64,000 nucleotides of DNA. Source: a virus. Taxonomy: Duplodnaviria > Caudoviricetes. Under the pieces are notes generated by a model. The model searched no databases. It worked only from the letters and a program-made list of their open reading frames with translations, and was not told the origin of the DNA. The translations under genes and the position numbers were made by a program. Numbering within the stretch: the first letter of the stretch is position 1; each line of letters opens with the position of its first letter. The stretch is from IMG/VR virus record IMGVR_UViG_3300028601_000020; one strand, 5' to 3'. Positions 7,625 through 50,292 of this stretch are shown piece by piece.

Positions 7625-8121
7625 AAGCCGGTGATATCATCAAAGCTAAGTACAATGGACACAAACAAAAATTTCAAATTCTTGGAGTGAATGACGTTAT
7701 TACTGATGGTTGCCTAAATCTTGCTGTTCTTGATTTCGCGCCGTATTGTTATGAAGAAACAATTAACGTTTTTGCCGAACAGTGGAAACCATCTTATTCT
7801 CTAAATAAAATGGGATTTTCTCCTACTTTCTGTCGGGAAGAAACAGTTAATGACGATCACTCCCATCGTGTTTATCTGAAACCTATTCTTGGTGATAAAA
7901 TGGTAATTCCGCTTAAAGTTCAAGAAATTGTGGCCGAAGCAGTAGAAGAACATAATGCTGATGTTCGTTTTACGGCAACAGAAGATGGATATGCTTTTTT
8001 GATTTTGTATACAGGTTCTTATAAAGGATTAACAATCCTCTCGTTTTTGCCTGATACATCTGAATACAATATTTCCTATCTTTCTGGAAAGGCGCTTGAT
8101 GCACTGAAATCTTTGTTATAA
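7621..8121 (+). CDS. Hypothetical protein
   Basis: 166-aa ORF coupled to the upstream stop (ATGA). Confidence 0.75.
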   Translation: MKAGDIIKAKYNGHKQKFQILGVNDVITDGCLNLAVLDFAPYCYEETINVFAEQWKPSYSLNKMGFSPTFCREETVNDDHSHRVYLKPILGDKMVIPLKVQEIVAEAVEEHNADVRFTATEDGYAFLILYTGSYKGLTILSFLPDTSEYNISYLSGKALDALKSLL

Positions 8122-11539: not shown

Positions 11540-12454
11540 ATGAGGGTCGTCAACCATGAAGTTCAAGAAATCGTTGAAGTTCCAGACGATTTTGAAGAAA
11601 TGCTCCGACATATTGAAAAAGTTGGAAGAATTTGTTATCAGTCACAAGAGAGAATTACAGAAGATTCAGCAGAAAAATTTGTCAAAATGCTTTTTCGCCG
11701 GGGTCATTGGGCAATGCTTGAGCATTCTTGGCTTGTATTCACTTCGTATCCTCTTGATTGGGACCAATGGCACCAGCTTTATGAGTTGACTGATAGCCGA
11801 TTTTTACAAGTTCTAGTTGATGACAGAGATGAAAGAATTCCTATTATATGTGGAAATTGGCGGGCTTGGTTTGAGCAAATTATCGGACCGGCAAAAGACA
11901 ACAAAAACAAATTTGAACTTTTCAAACAATTGCCAGATATTATTAAGGATCTTTTTTCAGTGTATGACATTACGCTTGATCGGGTTCATTTGAACGAAGT
12001 TGAAGATCCGTACCTTTACCCGAAAGCATACACTGCAACGTTTTTGACTGATCGTGCTGTTACTCATGAAATGGTAAGGCATCGGCCATGTGCTTTTGCT
12101 CAAAAGTCGCAACGTTTTTGCGCTGATCGTGAATATCTTGAATTTGTTGCTCCTTATTATCTTGATTTGACTTCTGACTCTTCAACTGGTGTGTCCACGT
12201 GGACGTGCCTAATGAACAGGATTGAAGAGGATTATCATTTTGCATTGCGAAATGGGCAGACAGCGCAAGAGGCACGTTCTATGCTTCCTAATTGCACTGC
12301 AACACAGATTGCGATGACCGCAGATAGTGTAGAATGGGAACATGTGTTTGATATGAGATGTGCATCGGATGCATATCCACCAATCAGAAAACTTATGAGA
12401 GAAGTCAAAGAAACATTCAAGCACCGTGGATACATAAAGGACGAACAAAAATGA
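11540..12454 (+). CDS. thyX: Flavin-dependent thymidylate synthase
   Basis: GHWAMLEH, HEMVRHRPCAFAQKSQRF (RHRx7SxR), EARSMLPN. Confidence 0.93.
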   Translation: MRVVNHEVQEIVEVPDDFEEMLRHIEKVGRICYQSQERITEDSAEKFVKMLFRRGHWAMLEHSWLVFTSYPLDWDQWHQLYELTDSRFLQVLVDDRDERIPIICGNWRAWFEQIIGPAKDNKNKFELFKQLPDIIKDLFSVYDITLDRVHLNEVEDPYLYPKAYTATFLTDRAVTHEMVRHRPCAFAQKSQRFCADREYLEFVAPYYLDLTSDSSTGVSTWTCLMNRIEEDYHFALRNGQTAQEARSMLPNCTATQIAMTADSVEWEHVFDMRCASDAYPPIRKLMREVKETFKHRGYIKDEQK

Positions 12455-15815: not shown

Positions 15816-15829
15816 TTTTGAGGAGTAAT

Positions 15830-16693
15830 ATGAAATCCCGTTCGTTTTCTGAAAGTAATTACAAAGCAATGTTTGTTGGTGGCAAAACTTTCCGTTTCGC
15901 AATCAATCCTGATAAACCGATTTCGCCGCTTGAATATCCTGAATTTTCTGATGTGAAAATCACTTCGTTCTGTATGGGTCAGTGTTCTTATTGTTATCAA
16001 GACAGTGACCTTGAATCTTCTCATTCTGATAAACTGCTTGAAAAGATCAAAGATTTTTATGGGCCTATGACACAGAACCAAAGACCTTTTCAGGTTGCAA
16101 TTGGTGGAGGCGAGCCGACTTCTCATCCTGATTTTGTGAAAGTGCTTGAACTGTTTGCTTCTCTTGGAATTGTTCCTAACTACACAACAAACGGAATGTT
16201 TGCTCTGAACATGCCTTATGATGAACGAGAAACCTTGTATAATATGACAAAGAAGGTTTCTGGTGGTGTTGCTGTTTCTTGTCATGATCATTTGGAGATG
16301 TATTGGAAATTCGCCGTTGAACGTTTCGTTGAACGAAATATTAAAACAAATCTTCATATCATTATTTCTGATGAAAAGAGCGTGATTCAATTCAGAGAAA
16401 TTTATGATGAATACAAAGACTCTGTTGATCATTTTGTCTTGCTGCCTTATCAGGTTATGGGAAGAGCAACACAGAAAACAATTGATTATGAAGCATTGAA
16501 ACGTCATTCTCCAGAAAACACAGATAAGATTGCATTCGGAGCAGACTTTTATCCTTATCTTGTTTCTGATCCGGGTCCATTTAATGTTTCTCTTTATGAG
16601 CCTGAGATTTTTTCGTCTTATATTGATTTCACGTTTGACGAACCTAAGGTGTTTTATTCATCTTTTGACTTACGGGAAAAGGTTTTTGCTTAA
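15830..16693 (+). CDS. Radical SAM protein
   Basis: CMGQCSYC (CxxxCxxC), GGGEPT, YTTNG. Confidence 0.92.
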   Translation: MKSRSFSESNYKAMFVGGKTFRFAINPDKPISPLEYPEFSDVKITSFCMGQCSYCYQDSDLESSHSDKLLEKIKDFYGPMTQNQRPFQVAIGGGEPTSHPDFVKVLELFASLGIVPNYTTNGMFALNMPYDERETLYNMTKKVSGGVAVSCHDHLEMYWKFAVERFVERNIKTNLHIIISDEKSVIQFREIYDEYKDSVDHFVLLPYQVMGRATQKTIDYEALKRHSPENTDKIAFGADFYPYLVSDPGPFNVSLYEPEIFSSYIDFTFDEPKVFYSSFDLREKVFA

Positions 16694-18949: not shown

Positions 18950-20476
18950 ATGAACCAATACTTGACAGTTTCAAGACACAAAAACTGTATTTATTCAAAA
19001 GAGGTTGATCAGGATTCAAAAACAATTTATCTGAAAAAAATAACCAAATATCCTTTTCGTTTTTTTGGTCCGTCTAAAGAAAAAACGGGATGGATTGACG
19101 TAAAAGGAAAGCCGCTCAAAGAAATCAATGCTGATTCTGTTGCAGACTTCAAGAACAAAACAAAATCAGTCCTTGAATATGGATACACGCTTTATGGAAC
19201 AGATAAACTCGAATATCAATACATTTATGAAGAATTTAAAGACGTAACCCCGAAAAATGATCTTATTATATCAGGGTTTTTTGATATTGAAACAGCAAGG
19301 GACGAGATTACTGGTTATTCTTCGCCAGCAGAAGCAAAAAATGAAATTATATCCATTTCATTGGTTGTCAAAGATAAAATTTATTATTGGGGAATGAAAG
19401 ACTTATCAAGTGAATTTTGCAAGAAACTGAATTTTGAATATTTTTGGTTCATGAATGAAGACGAAATGTTGGTTCATTTTGCAACTTTCATTCGTAATTC
19501 GGGAATCACTGTTCTATCAGGATGGAATATTGTTCAGTATGATATTCCATATTTCATGAATCGTATGAATAATTTGGAGATTGACAGAACAAAAATATCT
19601 CCTTTTGGTAAAGTGTTTGAACGTATGTTTAAAGATTCGTTCGGAAATGATGTTCAAACATTCAATATTGTCGGTATTGAGCTTCTTGATTACTTGGATC
19701 TTTATAAGAAATTTACTTACGTTACCCGCGACAATTACAAACTCAATACAATTGCACGGGTTGAACTACACGAAGAAAAAGTTGACTATTCAGAAGAAAG
19801 GAATCTTCAAGAGTTATATGAAAATGATTTTTACAAGTTCACTGAATACAACATTAAAGACTCTTTGTTAGTAAAACGACTTGATGAAAAACTGAAACTA
19901 ATTGACCTTTGTGTAACTATTGCATACAAGGCAAACGTGAATTTTGCAGACGCTCTTGGAACTGTAAAAATGTGGCAGTTTTATTTGTACAAAGAAATGT
20001 TGAATCAATACATGGTTCCTCCGATGAAACCGCAGAACACGGATGATTCGTCAATTATCGGTGCTTTTGTAAAAGATCCTCTTGTAGGAATGCACGAATG
20101 GATTGTTTCGTTTGACTTGGCTTCTCTGTATCCTCATAATCAAATGGGCTGTAATATCAGTCCAGATACTTTGCTTGATGACGATGAACTTCCTTCTGAG
20201 GTTCTTGATTTACGAAAGAAAATAATGTCAGAGTACCAAACGCTTGAAAATATTATTGAAGCGTTATCAAAGAAACAAATTGACTTAACAATCTTAAAGA
20301 AATATGATATAGGCATGACACCGAATGTCCAGTTTTATAAACGCGACAAACAAGGATTCATTCCCGAAATTCTTCATAAAGTTTATGATGACCGATCAAA
20401 AGCGAAAAAGAAAATGCTCTTGAAAAAGCAGGAATTAGAAAACCTCAAAGCGGAGTATAAGCATTATGAAAATTAA
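18950..20476 (+). CDS. 43: Family B DNA polymerase, N-terminal subunit (gp43A: exonuclease, palm motif A, first fingers helix)
   Basis: FDIET, GWNIVQYDIPY, YNIKDS, SFDLASLYP; ends within the fingers domain. Confidence 0.93.
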   Translation: MNQYLTVSRHKNCIYSKEVDQDSKTIYLKKITKYPFRFFGPSKEKTGWIDVKGKPLKEINADSVADFKNKTKSVLEYGYTLYGTDKLEYQYIYEEFKDVTPKNDLIISGFFDIETARDEITGYSSPAEAKNEIISISLVVKDKIYYWGMKDLSSEFCKKLNFEYFWFMNEDEMLVHFATFIRNSGITVLSGWNIVQYDIPYFMNRMNNLEIDRTKISPFGKVFERMFKDSFGNDVQTFNIVGIELLDYLDLYKKFTYVTRDNYKLNTIARVELHEEKVDYSEERNLQELYENDFYKFTEYNIKDSLLVKRLDEKLKLIDLCVTIAYKANVNFADALGTVKMWQFYLYKEMLNQYMVPPMKPQNTDDSSIIGAFVKDPLVGMHEWIVSFDLASLYPHNQMGCNISPDTLLDDDELPSEVLDLRKKIMSEYQTLENIIEALSKKQIDLTILKKYDIGMTPNVQFYKRDKQGFIPEILHKVYDDRSKAKKKMLLKKQELENLKAEYKHYEN

Positions 20477-20663: not shown

Positions 20664-21980
20664 AACTGACTAAAGAAGAATACTTTAAAAAGAAAAATGA
20701 GCTTGAATCAGAAATTGCTCAATTAAATGCCTATCAAATGGCAGCTAAAATCATGATGAACAGTTGATAAAATTTGCTGTTCTAAAACTCCTCTAATTCA
20801 GGGAACCTCCTTAAAATCAAGGACAATCCTGAGCCAAGACCAGAATGGTACGGTGCAACGACTAGCCGAAAGGCGTAGGGTGTAAGCGAATGACACCCGA
20901 AACGGGGAGGGACAGAAAACGTCCAAGATATAGTCTGATCTATATGGCAACATATAGCTGGATTCGTTCCGGGGCAAGATTTGCGCTCTTGTTTGAACAT
21001 AGATGGAATATGGAGCAATGGCCAATGCAAATTTTATTTTTTACGATTCAAGAAATGCTGAGGCTATCACGTCAACAGGACAGGTGGCAATTAAATTCAT
21101 TGAAAGAAAGTTCAATGAATACTTCCACAAATTGCTTGGTACTGATACTGATGTTGTCTTGGCAGTGGATACCGACTCAAATTATCTTCGTTTCGGCCCT
21201 GTTGTCAGAAAGTTTTTTAAGAACAAATCAGAAGCCGAAATTGTTGATTTGCTTGATAAGATAGCAAATGAACAGATTCAGCCTTATATTGATAAGTCTT
21301 ATCATGAATTGTCTGATTATTTGAATTCATTTGATATGCAATGGAAAATGAAACGGGAAGCAATTGCTTCAAAAGGTGTTTTTGTTGCAAAAAAGCGTTA
21401 TTTCATGCATATTTTGGATGATGAAGGAGTCAGAATGAAATCTCCAAAATTGAAAGTGACAGGACTTGAAGCGGTTCGTTCAAGCACTCCTGAAATTTGT
21501 CGTGAAGCATTAAAGAAAGCAATGAAAATCATTCTTGATAAAAATGAGGAAGCAGTTCAGCGATTTATTCAAGAATTTAAAAAAGAATTCTTTGAGGCTC
21601 ATGTCCTTGATATTTGTTTTCCTCGTTCTGTGTCAGATATTGAAAAGTGGATTGATTCGTCTGGCAATGCTTTGAAAGGAATGCCTATTGCGGTTCGTGG
21701 TGCTTATGTTTATAATAAAACAATTAGGGCGATTGACCAGAAAGAAGAAACCATTAAATCGGGTGATAAAGTTTCTTTTGTGTACATGAAGCAGCCGAAC
21801 AGATTTAAATCAAACGTTTTGGCGTTTCCTAATTATATTCCGAAGTGTCTTGAAATAGAAGATACTGAAATTGACAAAAACACCCAATTTGAAAAATCTT
21901 TCTTGACTTCATTGAGGATCATTCTTGGTGTTGTCGGATGGAAAGAGGAAGTCGTGAACGATTTGACCGCGTTTTTCTGA
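20660..21980 (+). CDS. 43: Family B DNA polymerase, C-terminal subunit (gp43B); exons 20660-20764 and 21006-21980
   Basis: Exon 1 ends QMAAKIMMNS, exon 2 begins EYGAMAN, restoring motif B KxxxNSxYG; also DTDS, KKRY, GLEAVRSSTP. Confidence 0.9.
20765..21005 (+). mobile_element. Group I self-splicing intron, 241 nt, no ORF
   Basis: P1: exon GAACAGU pairs with GCUGUUC (U-G at splice site); core elements aattcagggaa, aatcctgagc, gcaacgactag, aagatatagtc; terminal G; splicing restores the frame. Confidence 0.9.
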
Positions 21981-27251: not shown

Positions 27252-27697
27252 TTCATAGAATAAAGGCTTTCAGAGATTATCTGAAAGAACAAACCATTAC
27301 GATTCAAGGCAAGAAACTTGATTTGACTGTTCCTAAAAGAGCGGTCAAATCAAGCAAAATTGTTTTTGTTGATGCCAATAAATTTGATTCAATGTACAAG
27401 AAAGAAGAAATGTATGTTGGTTCAAAAGGGAAAGGCGGAAACAGAGATAAATACAACAGAATCAATCTTTTTGTTTTTGGTGGGTATGAAGATGTAGGTG
27501 GAGGAATAAAAATTCCTTATAAACCGTTTTCTGGTACATTTGAAGTTTCAGAAGTTTCAGTTAGCAATGAAGGCCGTATTTCTTTTACTGATGGGAGACA
27601 TAGGTTCGCATGGTTTAAAGATTCAGGATTGAAAAAAATACCAGTAGCAATGAGCAAAGAATCAATTCAAAACGCCAAAAAATTTAATTTACTCTAA
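27248..27697 (+). CDS. ParB/Srx-like domain protein
   Basis: FTDGRHRF...G...IPV motif. Confidence 0.6.
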   Translation: MIHRIKAFRDYLKEQTITIQGKKLDLTVPKRAVKSSKIVFVDANKFDSMYKKEEMYVGSKGKGGNRDKYNRINLFVFGGYEDVGGGIKIPYKPFSGTFEVSEVSVSNEGRISFTDGRHRFAWFKDSGLKKIPVAMSKESIQNAKKFNLL

Positions 27698-27700
27698 AAG

Positions 27701-27742
27701 ATGAAACACTACAAAGAATTTATTGTTGAGGACAATTGTTAA
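27701..27742 (+). pseudogene. Orphaned original N-terminus (MKHYKEFIVE) of the gene now starting at 28607
   Basis: Aligns with MKHFSSFIVE; tttattgttga shared at both junctions. Confidence 0.75.
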
Positions 27743-28484
27743 AATGCCATCTTCTCATTGCTGGTATTCCGCCTGATTTTCCGCAATGGGGGCAAACAAT
27801 TTTAGGTTTTATTTTTCCTTTGTTTTTTGATTGTTTTCCTAATTTAGCAAGTCTCGTTTTATTCCTTGTTTCTTCTGAAATATGTTTACCAAACATAGGA
27901 TTATTTTCACCAGATTTTGCTTTGCTCATTTTTTGTTTTGTTTCTTCAGACATGACTTTTCCATTATGAGAATCGCTCATTTTTTGTTTAGTTTCTGAAG
28001 AGTGATTTTTTCCAAACAGAGGATGATTTACCCCAGTTTTTGCGATTCTCATTTTTTGTTTTGCTTCTTCAGACATGACTTTTCCTTTATGTGCTTTACT
28101 TAATCGCTGTCTTGTTTCTTCTGATTTTATTATGCCTTTATGAGAATTGCTCATTTTTTGTTTAGTTTCTGAAGAAATTTTTGAAGCACCATAACCGCCT
28201 CCAATAACATTATATGTGTCGGTACGATTAATAAAATTTTCATCAACAAGTTCTTTCTCTTTCTGGTATGCTTTCTCAGGAGTATAAAAGACATGAAGAG
28301 TTTCACGGATGAAATTCTCTTTGCCGTATTTCTTTATTGCTCTGTTGATTCCAACCCCTGAACCGAAATATCCATCAAATAAAATGGGGAAATGAAATTT
28401 CTGTTTATGTTTGCCAATATAAAATTTTCCGTTGACAAGATTGGTAGTTTTGTATACAATATAAATATGTTTAGATTCTGACAT
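27720..28484 (-). CDS. GIY-YIG (Seg-like) homing endonuclease with NUMOD3 repeats, antisense
   Basis: IYIVYKTTNLVNGKFYIGKH...YFGSG; SEETKQKMS repeats; CPHC tail. Confidence 0.92.
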   Translation of the reverse strand: MSESKHIYIVYKTTNLVNGKFYIGKHKQKFHFPILFDGYFGSGVGINRAIKKYGKENFIRETLHVFYTPEKAYQKEKELVDENFINRTDTYNVIGGGYGASKISSETKQKMSNSHKGIIKSEETRQRLSKAHKGKVMSEEAKQKMRIAKTGVNHPLFGKNHSSETKQKMSDSHNGKVMSEETKQKMSKAKSGENNPMFGKHISEETRNKTRLAKLGKQSKNKGKIKPKIVCPHCGKSGGIPAMRRWHFNNCPQQ

Positions 28485-28568
28485 GCTATACCTCGAATAT
28501 AGATGTTGGGGTTTAGTCTTTCACAAGAATTGGCGTTCTTGTGAAAGACGTTATACATAGTATTTATA
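28485..28568 (-). promoter_or_regulatory. Late promoter plus structured leader of the GIY-YIG gene
   Basis: TATAAATA (28561-28568, minus strand), 14-bp hairpin 28516-28549, small ctata/tatag stem around the SD. Confidence 0.75.
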
Positions 28569-28606
28569 ACAATTAACAATTAACAATTATTAAAAAGATG
28601 AAAAAG

Positions 28607-28957: not shown

Positions 28958-29539
28958 ATGGCATGGCATATTATAGAAGAAAAACCCAATTGGGAATATT
29001 CTGATACTCCAAACACAGATAAAAAACCAATTGATCATTATGATTATGATAATAATGCGGTTCATGTAAATGGAACGAAGCATGTTTTTTCTGGTGAGAA
29101 ATTTGTTTTAGCAAGACAGCGTTTTCATGAACATCCGGGACATGGAGAATTGTATGTGAAATATGCTCCAATTACGGCGATTTATGATTCTGGAATTCTT
29201 TCTTGGGTGTATACTCTTCCTGATGATATAGAAATAAAAAATGCAACTGGGTGGGAAGCAGGAGAAGCAAATTTGTTTTATGACGCAAGCGGAAATCCAA
29301 TATCAGTAAGTGGGACCGATATACTGGACGATCAATTTATAAATACTTGGAACGTGTTTTTTGTTGAAGTTGATGAAGTATTAGAAACAGGAAGATTGAT
29401 AATCTATCCAGAAGATATTTCTTATACTGAAGCCGCTTCGTTAATGCGAAAACATGATTTGCCCGTGATGAAAACTTTATATATAGATTATTCACCATTA
29501 ACTATTAACGGTGATATTTTAACAATAAATCAAATTTAA
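28958..29539 (+). CDS. Hypothetical protein, possibly virion-associated, upstream of the DGR target
   Basis: 193-aa ORF with AAGGA RBS. Confidence 0.7.
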   Translation: MAWHIIEEKPNWEYSDTPNTDKKPIDHYDYDNNAVHVNGTKHVFSGEKFVLARQRFHEHPGHGELYVKYAPITAIYDSGILSWVYTLPDDIEIKNATGWEAGEANLFYDASGNPISVSGTDILDDQFINTWNVFFVEVDEVLETGRLIIYPEDISYTEAASLMRKHDLPVMKTLYIDYSPLTINGDILTINQI

Positions 29540-29548
29540 GGAAAGAAT

Positions 29549-30904
29549 ATGCCTAACATTGATACAAATGCGAAACCTCTAACGGGGTTTAATTCAAAGG
29601 TTTTTGGTATGGATTCGTCTGGAACGCCGGGATGGATTCAAGCATCTTTTTTTGCTCCTGAAGTGTATTCAATAGGAATTCCCGGAACGGCGGGGTTTGG
29701 GGTAGGGGTTGCTCCTGAATTGCCGGATGGTATGTCTCCTCTCCCCGGAACGAATTCTGTATTATCTCCAGAATTCGGGAATTATCAATATTCAGACGGG
29801 TCAATTTGTTGTTTCGTCCCAACGTACTTTTACAAGTACGGAACAGGATCAAACGGTCTCTCAGTAAACCAAGTTGACATTAAGCCGTACTCGTTTTTCA
29901 ATAGTGTAGCCGAAGCAAACGCAAATGGGTATACTGTTCACCGAGCGTTTTATAATGGCGGGGTGTTGCGAAGGGGCTATTTTCTTGATAAATGGCATAA
30001 CTCTGCAAATGGAACGGTTGCTAGTTCATTGAAAAATGGAATTCCTATTTCTTCGGCAACAAGAGGTACTTTGATTGGCCAAGATTTCGCTTCTTTGGGA
30101 GTCGCCGCAAATTATTCAGGAGCGATTGATCTTGCCAAAAAACGTGGACCGGGGTGGCATTGTGCAACATTGTTCCAGTTTACGGCCGTTGCATTAGCAC
30201 AACTGGCACACGGGCAAGCGTCAACAAACAGTACTTATTGTGGTTGGTATGATCCTGCTGGAGTAACGAATTTCCCGAAAGGATACAACAACAACGCATA
30301 TAAAGATCATCTGGACGCAACGGTTATTTATCAGCCAGACGGCAGCGGTACTACATGCGGATTGACTGGTTCAGCTAGTATCCCTTCAAAGGTTTCCCAT
30401 AATGGCCAAGAATGCGGCGTGATGGATTTGAACGGACTGGTATATAACATTGCACTTGGTTTGACTTCTGATGGAACAAATTATTATATTTTGAAGCCAG
30501 ATGTTAATATTAGCGCATTGACTTCTGGAGCATCGTTATCAACAGATGTGTGGGGAGCATCGTCGTATGCAGCGAATTACACGAACGTTGGATCTTCTTA
30601 TGGTGCAATGGACAACGCGGCCGTTAATAAAATAATGGGCAGTGCAAATCAAGTTTTAAGTGAAGATGTAAGTGGTTTAGGCTGGGAAATGACGGGGGCA
30701 GGAATTCCGTTGCTTAATGGCGTGGGAGGAAGTAATATGTTTGGCAATGATTATTTTTATCCTAAATTGGTTTCCGCATTGTGTCCGGTTGTTGGTGGGC
30801 GTTGGAACTCCACTGCGTCTGCTGGTTGTTGGGCTTTGATTTTGGATACTTCGCGTGCTAATGCGAACTTCGGTGTTGGGCTTCGCTCTGCCTTGTATCT
30901 TTGA
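29549..30904 (+). CDS. DGR target protein (probable CLec-fold receptor-binding or fibre protein) with C-terminal VR
   Basis: HNGQECGVMDLNG and the terminal GGRW...AG...GLRSA pattern typical of CLec DGR targets; VR matches TR. Confidence 0.9.
   Translation: MPNIDTNAKPLTGFNSKVFGMDSSGTPGWIQASFFAPEVYSIGIPGTAGFGVGVAPELPDGMSPLPGTNSVLSPEFGNYQYSDGSICCFVPTYFYKYGTGSNGLSVNQVDIKPYSFFNSVAEANANGYTVHRAFYNGGVLRRGYFLDKWHNSANGTVASSLKNGIPISSATRGTLIGQDFASLGVAANYSGAIDLAKKRGPGWHCATLFQFTAVALAQLAHGQASTNSTYCGWYDPAGVTNFPKGYNNNAYKDHLDATVIYQPDGSGTTCGLTGSASIPSKVSHNGQECGVMDLNGLVYNIALGLTSDGTNYYILKPDVNISALTSGASLSTDVWGASSYAANYTNVGSSYGAMDNAAVNKIMGSANQVLSEDVSGLGWEMTGAGIPLLNGVGGSNMFGNDYFYPKLVSALCPVVGGRWNSTASAGCWALILDTSRANANFGVGLRSALYL
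30782..30893 (+). repeat. DGR variable repeat (VR)
   Basis: 112 bp colinear with TR 31378-31489; 17 mismatches, all at TR adenines. Confidence 0.97.
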
Positions 30905-30929
30905 GTCGTCTCGCGGTAGCGAAGACGAC
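30905..30929 (+). promoter_or_regulatory. DGR target-recognition hairpin / cruciform
   Basis: gtcgtc-tcgc-GGTA-gcga-a-gacgac immediately after the target stop codon. Confidence 0.8.
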
Positions 30930-30956
30930 ATAACACGAATAGATTTGGAGATAAGA

Positions 30957-31349
30957 ATGAACGTAAATTATGAAGCAACGTTAGATCATAAATACATAGA
31001 GTTTGCAAAGTTGCTTAATTGTTATCTTAATCATTTTCCTAAATTTGAAAAATATGCATTAACCCAAGAAATAAGAAAAACATCGTATGAAATGTATTGT
31101 TTGATGATTGAAGCCCAAAAAAGATATCACAAGAAAACAACTTTGTCTAATCTCAACATCAAACACGAACAACTTAGAATGTTGGTTCGCTTGGCTTATT
31201 CTCTTGAATATTTTAAATACAATGATGGTTCAAAAACGAACACAGAAGATAAAGCCACTCATAGATATTTCGCTTTGTCTCGGATGATAGATGAAATTGG
31301 AAGAATGATAGGAGGATGGATGAAGTCACTCAAATCTGAAAAGATATAA
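30957..31349 (+). CDS. avd: DGR accessory variability determinant
   Basis: FPKFEKYALTQEIRK...LRMLVRLA...IDEIGRMIGGW four-helix Avd signature, located between VR and TR. Confidence 0.93.
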   Translation: MNVNYEATLDHKYIEFAKLLNCYLNHFPKFEKYALTQEIRKTSYEMYCLMIEAQKRYHKKTTLSNLNIKHEQLRMLVRLAYSLEYFKYNDGSKTNTEDKATHRYFALSRMIDEIGRMIGGWMKSLKSEKI

Positions 31350-31377
31350 TGATGTTTGAAAAGGAATCATCTTAACA

Positions 31378-31489
31378 TGTCCGATTGTTGGTAGGAATTG
31401 GAACAACAATGCGAATGCTGGTTGTTGGGCTTTGAATTTGAATAATTCGCGTGCTAATGCGAACAACAATGTTGGGCTTCGCTCTGACT
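31378..31489 (+). repeat. DGR template repeat (TR)
   Basis: AAC/AAT-rich non-coding copy of VR between avd and RT. Confidence 0.97.
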
Positions 31490-31610
31490 CGGAACTACCT
31501 CGTATTCTAAAAAGAAATGGTGGATCCAAGGGAGATGGTTTCTTGGGGTTTCCCGAAATCGGTTTGGTATTATTTTTCTAGTAGGATTAAATTCTCGAAA
31601 GTCAAATGAT

Positions 31611-32597
31611 ATGAAGCGCGTAGGATTTTTGTTTGAGAAAACATTTACAAAAGAATCTCTTTTTGATGCGTATTTAGTTGCTTCAAAAGGAAAACACAAT
31701 AAAAGGCAATTCTTTGAATTTGAGAAAAATTTAGCACACAATATTGATTTATTATATGAATCAATTCATGACGGGTCATATAAACCGAAAAAATATTTTA
31801 AATTTGAAGTCTATGAACCAAAGAAAAGAACCATTTATGCTCCTGCTTTTAGAGACATTGTTGTTCAACATGCAATTTATAAAGTGATATATCCTATTTT
31901 CAATAAAACCTTTATTGATCAATCATTCGCTTGTAGAGTGGGATATGGAACACACAAAGCGGCAGATTATGCTCAAGAATCCATGAGAAAATCGGCTATT
32001 GATAGTTATACGATCAAACTTGATATACGAAAATTCTTTTATAGAATTGATAGAAGTGTTCTAAGAAAATTGATTGAAAAGAAAATTAAAGATAAACAAT
32101 TTGTTGATATCATGATATTGTTTTGCGACTATCCAGATCCTATTGGAATTCCAATAGGAAATTTATTAAGTCAAATTTATGCTCTTATATTTTTAAATCC
32201 TCTTGATCATTTCATAAAAAGAACACTTAAAATAAAATATTATTGCAGATACGTTGATGATTTTGTTTTATTTGATTTAACCTCTGATCAATGCAAATGT
32301 TGTTTAAATAAAATTCGAGAATTCATCAATAAAGAGTTAAACTTACAGCTTTCACACTATACAATAGCGAAAACAATAAAAGGAATAAATTTTGTAGGAT
32401 ATAGAACATGGAGATCAAAAAGATTTATTCGTAAAAGAAGCCTTTATATTTTTAAAAAAGCACTCAAAAATAAATTATATAAATCTTTGGCATCTTGTCT
32501 AGGACACGCAAAAAGAACTCATTCCTTAAAAAGAATGCTAACCATGATACAAGAGGAAATAAATGGCAATAATTTATCAGTACAAAAAACACATTGA
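31611..32597 (+). CDS. DGR reverse transcriptase
   Basis: EPKKRTIYAPAFRDIVVQHA, LDIRKFF, GIPIGNLLSQ, RYVDDF, FVGY. Confidence 0.96.
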   Translation: MKRVGFLFEKTFTKESLFDAYLVASKGKHNKRQFFEFEKNLAHNIDLLYESIHDGSYKPKKYFKFEVYEPKKRTIYAPAFRDIVVQHAIYKVIYPIFNKTFIDQSFACRVGYGTHKAADYAQESMRKSAIDSYTIKLDIRKFFYRIDRSVLRKLIEKKIKDKQFVDIMILFCDYPDPIGIPIGNLLSQIYALIFLNPLDHFIKRTLKIKYYCRYVDDFVLFDLTSDQCKCCLNKIREFINKELNLQLSHYTIAKTIKGINFVGYRTWRSKRFIRKRSLYIFKKALKNKLYKSLASCLGHAKRTHSLKRMLTMIQEEINGNNLSVQKTH

Positions 32598-32997
32598 TTC
32601 CGTTACTACAATTTATATAAAACTTCCAGAAGATACTATTTATAATGAACTTGCTGTAATTGATGGCATAACTTATGTTTCTGTTCCGGATAATGTTGTT
32701 CTTCCTGAACAACCAACAGAAATTTCCGTAACTGTTGCAGAAATAACAGATGATTTGCGATCCCGTTTAAGGAAAGAATCGGCTCATTTGCAATTGATTG
32801 ATAATCAATTCACAGAAAAACTACGGAAAAAATATTCCGTTGAAGATGAACTTTATTTCAGTAGGATTGCAATTGGTTTCCTTCTTGGTAAATATGTTTT
32901 TGAAGATGATGAAATGGGGTTGCTTTCTGAATATCAACAATTCGTTGAAGATTTGCGCGAATGGGCAAGGAACGAGAGAAAAAATCTTGGTTTGTGA
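32563..32997 (+). CDS. Hypothetical protein coupled to the RT gene (possible fibre chaperone)
   Basis: Overlaps the RT stop; LRKKYSVEDE motif; function inferred from position only. Confidence 0.65.
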   Translation: MAIIYQYKKHIDSVTTIYIKLPEDTIYNELAVIDGITYVSVPDNVVLPEQPTEISVTVAEITDDLRSRLRKESAHLQLIDNQFTEKLRKKYSVEDELYFSRIAIGFLLGKYVFEDDEMGLLSEYQQFVEDLREWARNERKNLGL

Positions 32998-33011: not shown

Positions 33012-33590
33012 ATGAATATTGAAACAAATTTGTGGATTACATCCGATCATCATTTTTTACATTCAAATATTGCAAAGTATTGTAACAGACCAGAGAATTT
33101 CAATAAAATTCTTGTGAATAATTGGAATTCTCTGGTTCATGATGATGATATTGTCTTACACTTAGGCGATTTTTCTGCTGGTGTTGGTTCTTATCCGAAC
33201 GGTTACAAGACACTAAAAATAATTTCTGCTTCTTTAAAAGGAACAAGATTTCTTATCAGAGGCAATCATGATCATAAACCAGTGAATTATTTCACTGATG
33301 AATTGTGGTTCAATGAAGTTTATCAACATTTTATTATTGACGAATACTTTTTCTCCCATTATCCTTTGGTTGTCTTTCCTAGTGATTCACGACGAATCAT
33401 GAACAAGAAAAAACATCTTCTTTCTGTTTTCAAGAAAGAAAAATGCCGGTATGTCATTCACGGACATACCCACGCTCCTCATCCTAACCTACCAAATCAT
33501 TTTAACGTTTGTGTTGATTTGCATGGTTACTCACCCGTTTTATTCTCCGACATAAAAAAATATTTTCATCAAAACAAAGAAATTGCTTGA
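33012..33590 (+). CDS. Calcineurin-like metallophosphoesterase
   Basis: SDHHF, HLGDF, RGNHD, SHYP, HGHTH, NVCVD. Confidence 0.92.
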   Translation: MNIETNLWITSDHHFLHSNIAKYCNRPENFNKILVNNWNSLVHDDDIVLHLGDFSAGVGSYPNGYKTLKIISASLKGTRFLIRGNHDHKPVNYFTDELWFNEVYQHFIIDEYFFSHYPLVVFPSDSRRIMNKKKHLLSVFKKEKCRYVIHGHTHAPHPNLPNHFNVCVDLHGYSPVLFSDIKKYFHQNKEIA

Positions 33591-34598: not shown

Positions 34599-35687
34599 AT
34601 GGGAGGCAATATTTGCGTGAACGAAAATTATGCCGATGCACTTGATGTTCGGCAGCATAATCGGGAAAAGTTCATTTGTCTTTTCATGGGAATGATTGGA
34701 CATTTGAATTATCTTTTTAATGAAAAAGAAGATGAATTGATTTGGGATTTGTCTGTTCCGTTTAAGTATCTTGCAAGCGGATCGTCAAAATTTCTTTTTA
34801 CGAAAGACTTGTTTGATCTTTATGCAGCGAAACCGACTTTTGGAGATATTGATTTTTTTGTTCCGAAAGAAAAGAAAGATAAATTTATTTCTTTCATTGA
34901 TTCTCTGAAAGGAAGAGAATTGAGTCGGTATTTCACTTTCATTGGACACAACAAAGAAGGTAAGAAAGCGAATAATCAAATCAATTGCCTTTTCCGATAT
35001 TTTCCAGGCGAACATGCTCCGTTGAATATTCAAGTTGATTTTGAATTCGTTGAATTTCAAAAAGGAGCAATTCCATCCGTCTTTTCTGTGTTTTCTCGTT
35101 CGTCTTCATGGGAAGATGTTGAAATGGGAATTAAAGGGGTTCAACATAAATATCTTATCACTTCAATTTTTCAAACGGGACAACAGATTGACGGGATAAT
35201 CGTAACTCCCAAAAGCACAGAACAAAACTTCACTATTTCAAAGAAAATCATCAATCCTTCTGAATATTGCTTTTCCGTGTCTCATGGAGCAAGACGAAAA
35301 TTTTCATGGGCATTTACTGCTTATGGAAATGATTATTATAAAGAAATCCCGCCTAATGAACGTAAATATTTCAATGATTTGCATGTAATTTATGATTTAA
35401 TGTTTGAAGAATATGACATGTATTGTGAAGATATTGATTATTTGTGGTCATTTGTCGGAATTGTTAATATTATCAAAAAATTGCAGGTACCCGATAAACG
35501 AATTGAAAGAATCTTTCGGGCACTCATTGAAATTAATTTTGGAAAGAAAGCGCAGAAATTGAGTCGTGATCCTAAGGTGGATGCAGAAATTAAATTGAAT
35601 GCCGTAAAATACTTTGCAAATCATTTCAAATTTTTGTATTATGAAGCATATTTGGCAAAGATAAATCAGTATTATAAAAATTTCTAG
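34599..35687 (+). CDS. Putative Pol-beta-like nucleotidyltransferase
   Basis: MGGN start, SGSS...FGDIDF, IQVDFE acidic triad, KGVQHK. Confidence 0.65.
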   Translation: MGGNICVNENYADALDVRQHNREKFICLFMGMIGHLNYLFNEKEDELIWDLSVPFKYLASGSSKFLFTKDLFDLYAAKPTFGDIDFFVPKEKKDKFISFIDSLKGRELSRYFTFIGHNKEGKKANNQINCLFRYFPGEHAPLNIQVDFEFVEFQKGAIPSVFSVFSRSSSWEDVEMGIKGVQHKYLITSIFQTGQQIDGIIVTPKSTEQNFTISKKIINPSEYCFSVSHGARRKFSWAFTAYGNDYYKEIPPNERKYFNDLHVIYDLMFEEYDMYCEDIDYLWSFVGIVNIIKKLQVPDKRIERIFRALIEINFGKKAQKLSRDPKVDAEIKLNAVKYFANHFKFLYYEAYLAKINQYYKNF

Positions 35688-47519: not shown

Positions 47520-47835
47520 CATGAATCCAATGTATGAAAACTGTATGGACTTGCTTGGTGACGAACACGAAAAAACAACCCTTGAGGGTTTTGTTGAAAT
47601 ACAGTCTAAAAATGATACTGACCTAAAAATTATCTGGGATGAGATTTCTGATATTGTAAAAGATAGTGACAAGAAATATAAAAGTTTGTGTGTTCATTTT
47701 GAGACGAAAAAGGACATGGAAGATTTTTCAAAATCAATTAACCAAAAGATCAATAAATCATCCAAAGAAATGTGGTACACAAAAAACAAACAAGAAAATA
47801 ATTCAATTTTAGAGGATTTTTTAGGTGCTGATTAA
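47503..47835 (+). CDS. Small protein associated with the glycosyltransferase (paralog 2)
   Basis: VHFETKKDMEDF...NQKI...SKEMW, similar to paralog 1. Confidence 0.7.
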   Translation: MKTKPDMNPMYENCMDLLGDEHEKTTLEGFVEIQSKNDTDLKIIWDEISDIVKDSDKKYKSLCVHFETKKDMEDFSKSINQKINKSSKEMWYTKNKQENNSILEDFLGAD

Positions 47836-48856
47836 TTCAAAATTCACAAATCCAAAATATCCAGTTTACATTATTTCCAAAAATAGAGCAGATTCAATGC
47901 TTACCTCAAGGGCACTTGCACGAATGAGAATTCCTCATTTTATAGCAATTGAGCCTTTTAATCTCAAAGAGTATGATGAGGCATTAGACAATTTTGATAT
48001 AAGAAAATATGTTACTCTTTTGGTTCTTCCTTTTGAGAATCACGGCGATGGTCCCGGAAGAGCAAGAAATTGGTGCTGGGATCATTCAATCTCTGTTGGT
48101 GCAGAAAAACACTGGGTCATGGATGATAATATCCATGATTTTTATCGTCTTCATAATAACACACGATACAGAGTTGAAACAGGTGCTTTGTTTAGGGCGG
48201 CAGAAGATTTTGTTGATAGATTTGAAAATGTTCCTGTGTCTGGGTTAAATTATAAATTTTTTTGCCCCAAAGGCCAAAAAAGGCCGCCGTTCGTCAAAAA
48301 CACAAGGATTTATTCGTGTTTGCTGATCAGCAACGATTGCAAATACAGATGGAGAGGCAGATACAACGAGGACACCGATCTTTCATTAAGGATATTAAAA
48401 GACGGTGATTGTACGATTCAGTTTAATTTTTTTCTTCAAGATAAAGCAGCTACACAAACCCTGGGAGGAGGAAACACCGAAGAATTTTATGCAAAGGAAC
48501 TTGCCGATGTGCTTGATGATGACAAGAAAGGTGAATTGTCTACCATGCTGAAAGATAAATTCATTCAACATTTGAACCCCACGGGCACAAAAAACAAGAC
48601 CGAAATGTTGGTAAGAATGCATCCTGACGTGACGAAATCAGTATGGAGATACGGCCGCATTCATCATTTCGTGGACTATACTCCATTCAAGAAAAACAAA
48701 CTTAAATTGAAAGATGGATTGAATATTCCAAAGACAGTAAATAACTATGGATTGTCTCTTGTTAAATTCAAAGACTACGAAGAACTAGAATTGTATTTAA
48801 AAACTAAAGCTGATTTGCCCGCCCTGGAGAACAATATAAAAAAGAAACCGAAATGA
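47825..48856 (+). CDS. GT-A glycosyltransferase (TET-associated / GREB1-like family)
   Basis: YPVYIISKNR, GPGRARNW, HWVMDDNI, RIYSC, WRGRYNEDTDLSLR, GGNT, HHFVDY. Confidence 0.8.
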   Translation: MLINSKFTNPKYPVYIISKNRADSMLTSRALARMRIPHFIAIEPFNLKEYDEALDNFDIRKYVTLLVLPFENHGDGPGRARNWCWDHSISVGAEKHWVMDDNIHDFYRLHNNTRYRVETGALFRAAEDFVDRFENVPVSGLNYKFFCPKGQKRPPFVKNTRIYSCLLISNDCKYRWRGRYNEDTDLSLRILKDGDCTIQFNFFLQDKAATQTLGGGNTEEFYAKELADVLDDDKKGELSTMLKDKFIQHLNPTGTKNKTEMLVRMHPDVTKSVWRYGRIHHFVDYTPFKKNKLKLKDGLNIPKTVNNYGLSLVKFKDYEELELYLKTKADLPALENNIKKKPK

Positions 48857-49202: not shown

Positions 49203-49630
49203 TGTATAAAGTTAGAAAGTTGTTCAAATTTGAAGCTGCTCATGTTCTGGAAAGTAGTTATTCGCTTGATTGTCAGAACATTCATGGGCATTCGTATGAA
49301 GTTGAAGTTATCCTCAAAAGTAAAAAGCTGAATAAAGATGGAATGGTTTGTGATTTTGGAGAACTGAAGGATATTATCTCTTCTATTTTCATGGAATTTG
49401 ATCATTCTGTTATTGTTCCCGAATCCTTGTCGGAACATATTGTCAATACGGCATTCGTCAAACATGCCATCATCGTTAAGTATAATCCGACAGCGGAAAA
49501 TATGGCAAAATATTTCTATGATCTAATTGAAGATGAAATGTTGGTTTATGGGTTTGAAGATGTTAAAATTCACAAAGTAATTGTTCACGAAACAAAAACG
49601 GACTGGGCCTCGTATCAGGAGAGTAAGTAA
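49202..49630 (+). CDS. queD: 6-carboxy-5,6,7,8-tetrahydropterin synthase
   Basis: FEAAH...CQNIHGHSY, GMVCDF, FDHS, NPTAENMA, VHET. Confidence 0.93.
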   Translation: MYKVRKLFKFEAAHVLESSYSLDCQNIHGHSYEVEVILKSKKLNKDGMVCDFGELKDIISSIFMEFDHSVIVPESLSEHIVNTAFVKHAIIVKYNPTAENMAKYFYDLIEDEMLVYGFEDVKIHKVIVHETKTDWASYQESK

Positions 49631-50292
49631 TGTTGATTAATGAATCGTTTGTGTCTTATCAGGGTGAAGGACGATATTCAGGAAAGAAAACTCTTTTTGT
49701 TCGTCTTCAAGGATGCAATTTCCGATGCGTCTGGTGTGACACACCGGATGCTCTAAGTAAAGATGGTGGATCTGAAGTTGTAAATGATGAACTGGTAAAA
49801 AGGATCAATAAAGCAGAAGTGAACAATATTGTCTTCACTGGAGGCGAGCCTCTGTTGCAATATAAGGATCTTTTGTGTGTTATTCGGAAAATTGCTTCTG
49901 AAATCAAATACGAAAACCCGACAATTGAAATTGAAACAAACGGGACCATCCATCCTAAAGACTTGGTTTTTCAAACGGTCCATTTCAATGTGAGTCCGAA
50001 GCTGGAACATTCAGGAATGAAACGCTCTTCTGTCTTCAATGAACTTATTGCTGAATATGAAAAAAGCACGATCCGCCCTGATTACAAGTTTGTGGTTGAC
50101 CTAAATAGTGATAAACCGCTTGCGGAAGTTTTTAATTTTTACTATGATTTTGACATTCCGCCTGATCGTATTTGGTTGATGCCTCTTGGTACAGTAAATT
50201 ATGAAATTATTGAAAATGTGACAAAACTAATGCGAATGGATCACCCGTTTAATGTTTCGTCAAGAAACCATATCATCTACGGAGTAAAGTAA
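49630..50292 (+). CDS. queE: 7-carboxy-7-deazaguanine synthase (radical SAM)
   Basis: SYQGEG...FVRLQGCNFRCVWCDT, TGGEPLLQ, IETNG, VSPK. Confidence 0.93.
   Translation: MLINESFVSYQGEGRYSGKKTLFVRLQGCNFRCVWCDTPDALSKDGGSEVVNDELVKRINKAEVNNIVFTGGEPLLQYKDLLCVIRKIASEIKYENPTIEIETNGTIHPKDLVFQTVHFNVSPKLEHSGMKRSSVFNELIAEYEKSTIRPDYKFVVDLNSDKPLAEVFNFYYDFDIPPDRIWLMPLGTVNYEIIENVTKLMRMDHPFNVSSRNHIIYGVK

Follow-up and report, generated by a model that had tools for sequence, protein, structure and literature searches.

A complete BPP-1-type diversity-generating retroelement with a conserved fifth gene in an uncultured T4-like phage

The occurrence of diversity-generating retroelements (DGRs) in temperate phages is textbook knowledge, and the mechanism by which they act has been established for Bordetella phage BPP-1, a 42-kb temperate podovirus (mtd - avd/bbp7 - TR - brt) whose variable protein, Mtd, is the fibre-tip protein. 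Among large lytic phages, the T4-like ones have been studied most thoroughly, and they abound in many environments; the evolution of their host range is usually ascribed to recombination and point mutation in fibre adhesins. Here we describe a DGR that occupies positions 29549-32997 of a 64,000-nt stretch of IMG/VR record IMGVR_UViG_3300028601_000020 (hereafter the window). Our analysis indicates that this is very probably a functional BPP-1-type DGR which, together with a conserved additional gene (orf144), resides in the replication-gene region of a T4-like myovirus. For comparison, we used two other IMG/VR contigs, the only close relatives recovered by a metagenome scan with the reverse transcriptase (RT): L001 (UViG_3300033175_000003, 64.8 kb), which is collinear with window positions 20678-44151 at 86-95% identity and bears the DGR in the same place, and L002, which includes the 3' end of the target gene, the rest of the cassette downstream of it and the right flank.

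A survey of the literature found no report of a DGR in a T4-like, Straboviridae, Tevenvirinae or Kyanoviridae phage, and no T4-like record was seen among about 95 matches listed of the 152 deposited phages with a related RT. The original prediction, made from the sequence of the window without database searches, had held the element to be unusual in such a genome; this stands as regards T4-like phages, whereas DGRs on lytic phages as such have already been published (crAss-like phages and a slurry virome; PMC7981956), and in the survey of Roux et al. 2021 the DGR phages are not broken down by lifestyle or by kinship to T4 (PMC8144416).

Repeat pair and cassette parts

A repeat search of the 28.5-33.5 kb region returned a single pair of long direct repeats (30782-30900 and 31378-31496), comprising the variable repeat (VR) and the template repeat (TR). 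Upon recomputing the alignment, the adenine-only pattern that had been predicted proved exact: the 112-nt VR and TR differ by 17 mismatches, all of which lie at TR adenines, and the changes cited as examples (AAT>CGT, AAC>TCC and AAT>GGT) were correct. The mismatches consist of 6 A>G, 6 A>C and 5 A>T, and each of the 17 falls on codon position 1 or 2 of the open reading frame (ORF) 29549-30904. With 27 adenines in the 112 nt of the TR, the probability of obtaining adenine-only mismatches by chance is 1.6e-13 (hypergeometric). In the frame of the target, the TR adenines are spread over 15 codons (12 AAY plus ATT, AGG and GAC), none occupies the third position of a codon, adenine mutagenesis cannot generate a stop codon, and the theoretical protein repertoire amounts to about 6e15 variants. 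No second VR was found in the window or in the sister contigs. The VR-type end and the TR-type end are each kept among relatives and, by analogy with BPP-1, the segment 30875-30904 looks like an equivalent of the initiation of mutagenic homing (IMH) element.

The TR also gave the cassette's only nucleotide-level match in deposited phages: window positions 31381-31482 are 77% identical to positions 35143-35244 of Aeromonas phage phiWae15 (LC778250), where the match sits just 5' of the RT gene, indicating conservation of the TR sequence among distantly related DGRs whose targets are similar.

As originally proposed, target, VR, hairpin, avd, TR and RT follow one another in canonical order, and all match the BPP-1 layout feature for feature (Table 1). 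Both the RT and the avd reading frames are intact, as judged from the ORF list, the Pfam and PHROG matches and the RT motifs. The latter fit those that characterize the DGR clade, namely [I/L/V]GxxxSQ (here IGNLLSQ) and YxDD (here YVDD); an Avd is encoded, its sequence being 53% identical to a four-helix-bundle protein of phage Bise; and the target is a lectin-fold protein with the VR at the 3' end of its gene. The hairpin folds with -10.3 kcal/mol (z = -3.1). In related cassettes a hairpin is found at or near the same spot, mostly with a G[G/A]TA loop and with quite different stem sequences, which argues for selection on its structure; by analogy, the hairpin and the IMH-like end may serve as the target-recognition elements of the DGR. 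The spacer between TR and RT is likely the 3' part of the DGR RNA. Altogether, the element is supported as a complete BPP-1-type DGR.

The likeness to BPP-1 encompasses gene order, location of the VR at the 3' end of the target, a TR that follows avd directly, the lengths of the spacer (about 120-145 nt) and of the RT (328 aa), adenine-only mutagenesis, AAY codons, a hairpin with a 4-nt loop after the VR, and an Mtd-related lectin fold. Differences are (i) the RT, which is only 33% identical to Brt over 95% of its length, (ii) the target fold, which is closer to that of the Thermus aquaticus protein TaqVP than to Mtd, (iii) the presence of orf144, and (iv) the T4-like carrier of about 158 kb, in which the cassette stands among replication genes rather than closing a tail module. 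The RT and the Avd have their nearest counterparts, at 54-64% and 51-60% identity, respectively, in phage Bise (OR683401, 38 kb) and in related prophage DGRs from IMG/VR and metagenome-assembled genomes (MAGs), with a target of about 448 aa. This group shares the same order, a hairpin with mostly a G[G/A]TA loop, the conserved spacer and, except in Bise and in loci L007 and L008, an orf144-like gene after the RT. It differs in that the phages are small, that integrase or tail genes stand beside the DGR where the context is visible, that the N-terminal 40 residues of the target are of another type, and that the sequences are mostly G+C-richer. The DGRs reported on lytic phages (crAss-like phages and a slurry virome) occur in phages without lysogeny genes; these belong to a different phage group and a different RT clade (about 31-35% identity for the crAss RTs).

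Table 1. Coordinates of the cassette features and of the split DNA polymerase gene in the window
Feature	Position	Strand	Remarks
Split gp43 family-B DNA polymerase	18950-20476 and 21003-21980		PHROG matches
DGR target (variable protein), 451 aa	29549-30904	+	Residues 1-40, lineage-specific N-terminus; 41-451, compact conserved module with C-type-lectin-fold tip
VR	30782-30893	+	Target codons 412-448 of 451; 17/17 mismatches at TR adenines
IMH-like 3' end of VR	30875-30904	+	G+C-rich stretch common to TR, then VR-specific end
Hairpin	30905-30929	+	Adjoins 3' side of target stop codon; 10-bp stem interrupted by one bulge, GGTA tetraloop
avd (accessory variability determinant), 130 aa	30957-31349	+	Pfam bAvd 65.6 bits (cut-off 40); phrog_3206 'Avd protein of DGR' 4e-21
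TR, non-coding	31378-31489	+	27 adenines; 96% identity to sister-lineage TR
TR counterpart end (IMH*-like)	31471-31500		Differs from VR-specific end
TR-RT spacer, 121 nt	31490-31610	+	8 related DGRs share motifs and show compensatory pairs
DGR reverse transcriptase, 328 aa	31611-32597	+	RVT_1 2.7e-15; phrog_1423 1.4e-95; motifs IGNLLSQ and YVDD
orf144, conserved fifth cassette gene	32563-32997	+	Overlaps RT stop by 35 nt

Variable protein and orf144

A Pfam search with the target protein gave no match. The profile of the target family matched PDB 5VF4 at E 4.5e-7, the VR-bearing end included; this entry is TaqVP, a DGR variable protein (10.1101/432187). Using 90 sequences, AlphaFold2 modelled the target with a pLDDT of 94.3 and with uncertainty at residues 1-40 only; an alignment of 30 sequences had yielded a pLDDT of 35, high confidence being reached only after 50%-identity representatives were added. 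The Foldseek ranking for this model comprised TaqVP 5VF4 (E 2.4e-17), five BPP-1 Mtd structures (1YU0-4; E about 3e-5), FGE-type lectin folds and TvpA. Structure prediction, which had been proposed as a check on the target, hence returned a lectin-fold tip with TaqVP and BPP-1 Mtd as the nearest folds, and the model would place the rewritten codons on the tip of an Mtd/TaqVP-like protein. TaqVP, which is bacterial or prophage-encoded, is the best match over the whole module both in structure and by profile, although sequence identity amounts to 17% and the TM score to about 0.5-0.6.

The target family consists of 828 representatives at 50% identity, and the module of about 415 residues is often found C-terminally in proteins of 500-2010 aa, as would befit a fibre-tip domain. 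With respect to the N-terminal 40 residues, the T4-like clade is unlike the rest of the family, and this segment could represent a swapped virion anchor; the target itself is probably a virion receptor-binding or tail-associated protein. A homologue is also present in T4-related Campylobacter phages: in CP220 (NC_027997, 90794-92545; L098, 6569-8320), for instance, a 583-aa protein about 26% identical to target residues 46-342 is encoded next to an annotated tail-fibre gene, without the VR tip and without a DGR.

An orf144-like ORF follows the RT in 74 of the 78 informative loci with this target family (loci L003-L127), its start lying at a median of 14 nt after the RT, and the co-occurrence extends to an RT subclade that is only about 40% identical. 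The gene is absent from Bise, L007, L008 and BPP-1. No Pfam, PHROG, deposited-phage or named homologue of orf144 was found, and the leads obtained from Atlas (XkdW, DUF4376 and Caudo_TAP) were weak, all scoring < 0.9. Since orf144 tracks the target family, a role as partner or chaperone of the target seems more likely than one as RT cofactor.

The end coordinate given in the original prediction, 32997, is that of orf144. The flanking genes, orf193 and a phosphoesterase gene, are absent from all other cassettes compared, which defines 29549-32997, exactly the span first predicted, as the transferred unit. No homologue of orf193 was found in Pfam, PHROG or any further search. When orf193 and the downstream phosphoesterase were used to look for an 'empty site' relative, i.e. 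the flanks without the cassette, only the same two IMG/VR contigs were recovered. In L001, about 264 extra bases (7677-7940), terminating in an incomplete second copy of the orf193 3' end, are found between orf193 and the target; the corresponding gap in the window measures 9 nt (29540-29548). Residues 1-82 and 71-192 of the metallophosphoesterase encoded just 3' of the cassette (window 33012-33590) match L001 11403-11959 as two overlapping segments, suggestive of a frameshift in L001; the gene is intact in the window and in L002.

Carrier genome, activity and origin of the cassette

The T4-like context on which the original prediction was based was confirmed for gp43, gp41, gp61, UvsX and the late promoters. 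The two parts of gp43 gave matches at about 34% identity, and the best matches of gp41, at about 40% identity, were annotated g41 products of T4-like cyanophages; the window further encodes a gp61-type primase, UvsX, DNA and RNA ligases, six tRNA genes and several homing endonucleases. The T4 late-promoter motif TATAAATA is enriched, with 18 sites as against 4.15 expected, a number that none of 100 shuffles reached. The gp23 capsid gene is absent from the window; its C-terminal part opens the syntenic contig L001, about 33 kb upstream of the DGR (PF07068, E 1.3e-56), and this fragment matches >2500 T4-like phage records at up to 56% identity. The target is encoded on a 157,821-bp contig, and other members of its protein cluster on contigs of 154.8, 135.9 and 107.5 kb. 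We regard the carrier as an uncultured, deep-branching T4-like myovirus of about 158 kb. A marine phage, suggested by the nearest deposited relatives (cyano- and pelagiphages), was considered and dropped, as protein identity to these amounts to only about 35-40% and a contig with one cluster member was assigned to a Tissierellia MAG. In the sister target cluster, P0284 (NCBI MDD4436480.1) lies on an 85-kb contig binned in a 'Tissierellia bacterium' MAG, which may point to the host or, alternatively, result from wrong binning of a phage contig.

With regard to activity, the TR of the sister lineage (L001) differs from that of the window at 4 positions, and all four changes are mirrored in the sister VR, so that template information must have been copied to the VR after the two lineages diverged. 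The sites that distinguish the two VRs are mainly TR-adenine positions, which differ independently, and 13 of the 14 VR/TR mismatches within the sister lineage are at TR adenines. The variation that the original prediction expected in sequencing reads was sought among assembled proteins, which stand in for a read-level test, and was borne out there: in the target cluster at 90% identity, 10 VR peptides can be told apart among 11 members, which stem from different assemblies. Between P0281 and the window target there are 11 differing sites, all within the 15 TR-adenine codons; for P0272 and P0277, 9 of 10 and 10 of 11 differing sites, respectively, fall in such codons. These sequence comparisons are indirect and point to a DGR that is active in nature, through ongoing mutagenic retrohoming.

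As to the origin of the cassette, the RT phylogeny that had been called for paired the two T4-like sequences and nested them in a clade of 28 (SH-aLRT 97), itself inside a clade of 48 (99), the remaining 46 RTs of which, that of Bise included, come from contigs of at most 48 kb. The closest deposited RT is that of Bise, a 38-kb Pseudomonas phage (59% identity), in which the DGR follows baseplate and tail genes, while the IMG/VR relatives at 54-64% identity likewise lie on contigs of at most 48 kb. One of these has holin, endolysin, integrase and Rha-type regulator genes adjoining the DGR, and another has a tail-fibre gene just 5' of the target. The target family was found in assemblies of Rhodoferax, Dechloromonas, Halopseudomonas, Spongiibacter and others (mostly MAGs, with two isolates), and a scan of GTDB genomes for close target relatives returned none. 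As the RT is nested among DGRs of small phages, some of them shown to be temperate, the cassette was probably captured. We infer that this five-gene cassette came from the kind of temperate phage found as Pseudomonadota prophages and was refitted with a new N-terminal anchor of 40 residues; the low G+C content of the cassette suggests that the capture took place long ago. Among the related loci, a single RT in the 5.9-kb L008 (IMGVR_UViG_3300014208_000333) is surrounded by two target-like matches and two avd-like ones, which may represent a two-target DGR or a tandem arrangement.

Based on the mechanism established for BPP-1, an RNA spanning the TR and the spacer would be reverse-transcribed by an RT-Avd complex, with random misincorporation opposite template adenines during cDNA synthesis. 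The cDNA would then replace the VR, guided by the IMH-like end and the hairpin, whereby the 15 codons at the lectin-fold tip of the 451-aa target would be rewritten. Homing would presumably take place during lytic replication, and diversification within lytic cycles is plausible, given that about 100 kb of the sister contigs yielded no integrase.

Alternative explanations, implications and further features

A chimeric assembly at the cassette borders, the artefact that the original prediction had warned of, is ruled out, and we attach a negligible probability to the view that the cassette was mis-assembled onto a T4-like contig. The G+C content of the target (44.5%), which is above the window mean (35%), could be taken to favour it, but the same junctions are found in the independent collinear assembly L001 at both borders and in L002 at the right border, gp23 and the DGR are carried by one contig, several contigs >100 kb encode the same protein cluster, and avd (30.5%), RT (27.5%) and orf144 (33%) are AT-rich like the phage. 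It is very improbable, too, that the DGR is intact but inactive in this genome, its VR differences being the frozen trace of past homing: the single VR state visible in the window would fit this, but the ORFs, hairpin and spacer are all intact, ten different VRs occur among the 11 proteins of at least 90% identity, and not one of the 112 nt shows a non-adenine mismatch even though the whole target gene has diverged by about 14% from its sister. A phage that is not strictly lytic, with diversification in a temperate or carrier state, we consider improbable. The closest DGR relatives do reside in temperate phages, and the search for lysogeny genes covered at most about two thirds of the genome, but a tyrosine integrase was not detected in either sister contig (about 65 kb each), the gene content is typical of T4-like lytic phages, and no T4-like phage is known to lysogenise.

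It is unlikely that the DGR diversifies a non-structural or decorative protein (e.g. a capsid-surface adhesin or an intracellular binder directed against host defence) in place of a receptor-binding virion protein, although several features of the locus speak for it: the cassette is located between gp43 and uvsX amid small ORFs and homing endonucleases, with no recognisable tail module; its neighbours orf193 and orf115 have no homologues found; and a late promoter directly upstream of the target is lacking. On the other hand, the target fold is nearest to TaqVP and to Mtd, relatives carry the target gene after tail-fibre or baseplate genes or the module as the C-terminus of long fibre-like proteins, the VR-less homologues in T4-related Campylobacter phages adjoin a tail-fibre gene, and inspection of the N-terminus by eye made neither a signal peptide nor a membrane segment evident. 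We therefore retain a functional DGR acting on a virion protein of a T4-like phage. The following points weigh against this interpretation: (i) the site among replication genes and homing endonucleases contains no fibre cluster, and the virion role of the target is deduced indirectly; (ii) the nearest TATAAATA motif, at 29338, is 210 nt away from the target and inside orf193, so that no clear late promoter directly precedes the gene; (iii) one VR/TR mismatch in the sister lineage is not at an adenine; (iv) VR variants were compared between assemblies and not between reads of one sample; (v) the lysogeny-gene search covered about 100 kb of a genome of about 158-180 kb; and (vi) the direction of transfer depends on a tree rooted on a long branch, in which the T4-like sequences were flagged for composition bias.

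It is quite possible, if somewhat short of probable, that a strictly lytic T4-like lineage took the five-gene cassette (target, avd, TR, RT and orf144) from temperate Pseudomonadota phages, swapped the anchor to fit a T4-type virion and now retrohomes within its lytic, recombination-driven replication, which would provide it, in addition to the customary T4 fibres, with a hypervariable receptor-binding protein resembling Mtd, and with orf144 as a previously undescribed partner or chaperone. The mechanism is ordinary and the element itself adds no new one; the carrier, a T4-like phage, is unusual, and further interest attaches to a location away from any recognisable tail module, to the apparently swapped anchor and to the fifth gene, which is conserved. 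A working DGR would add to T4-like host-range evolution a programmed route of about 1e15 variants, and would imply that such a cassette can pass from small temperate phages to a very different virion and replication system while staying active. It also makes testable whether retrohoming works in a single lytic cycle, and orf144 and the swapped N-terminal anchor offer handles on the adaptation of DGR targets to new particles.

Aside from the cassette, the window shows three other features. A GIY-YIG/NUMOD3 homing endonuclease gene (27720-28484, minus strand) is closely preceded by TATAAATA on the same strand; the sister contig L001 lacks this gene, jumping from window position 27272 to 28593. 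Matches to the HMC-glucosyltransferase family, to QueE-like radical SAM enzymes and to a thymidylate-synthase-like enzyme were obtained among the regions 47825-48856, 49630-50292, 15818-16693 and 11540-12454; the phage may accordingly have modified DNA, and it would then be of interest how modified nucleotides are accommodated when DGR cDNA is made and integrated. Lastly, an open-ended ORF at 61852-63999 matches the ribonucleotide reductase large subunit in its middle part and helicase/terminase-type families at residues 598-696, and looks as if it carries an intein or another insertion.

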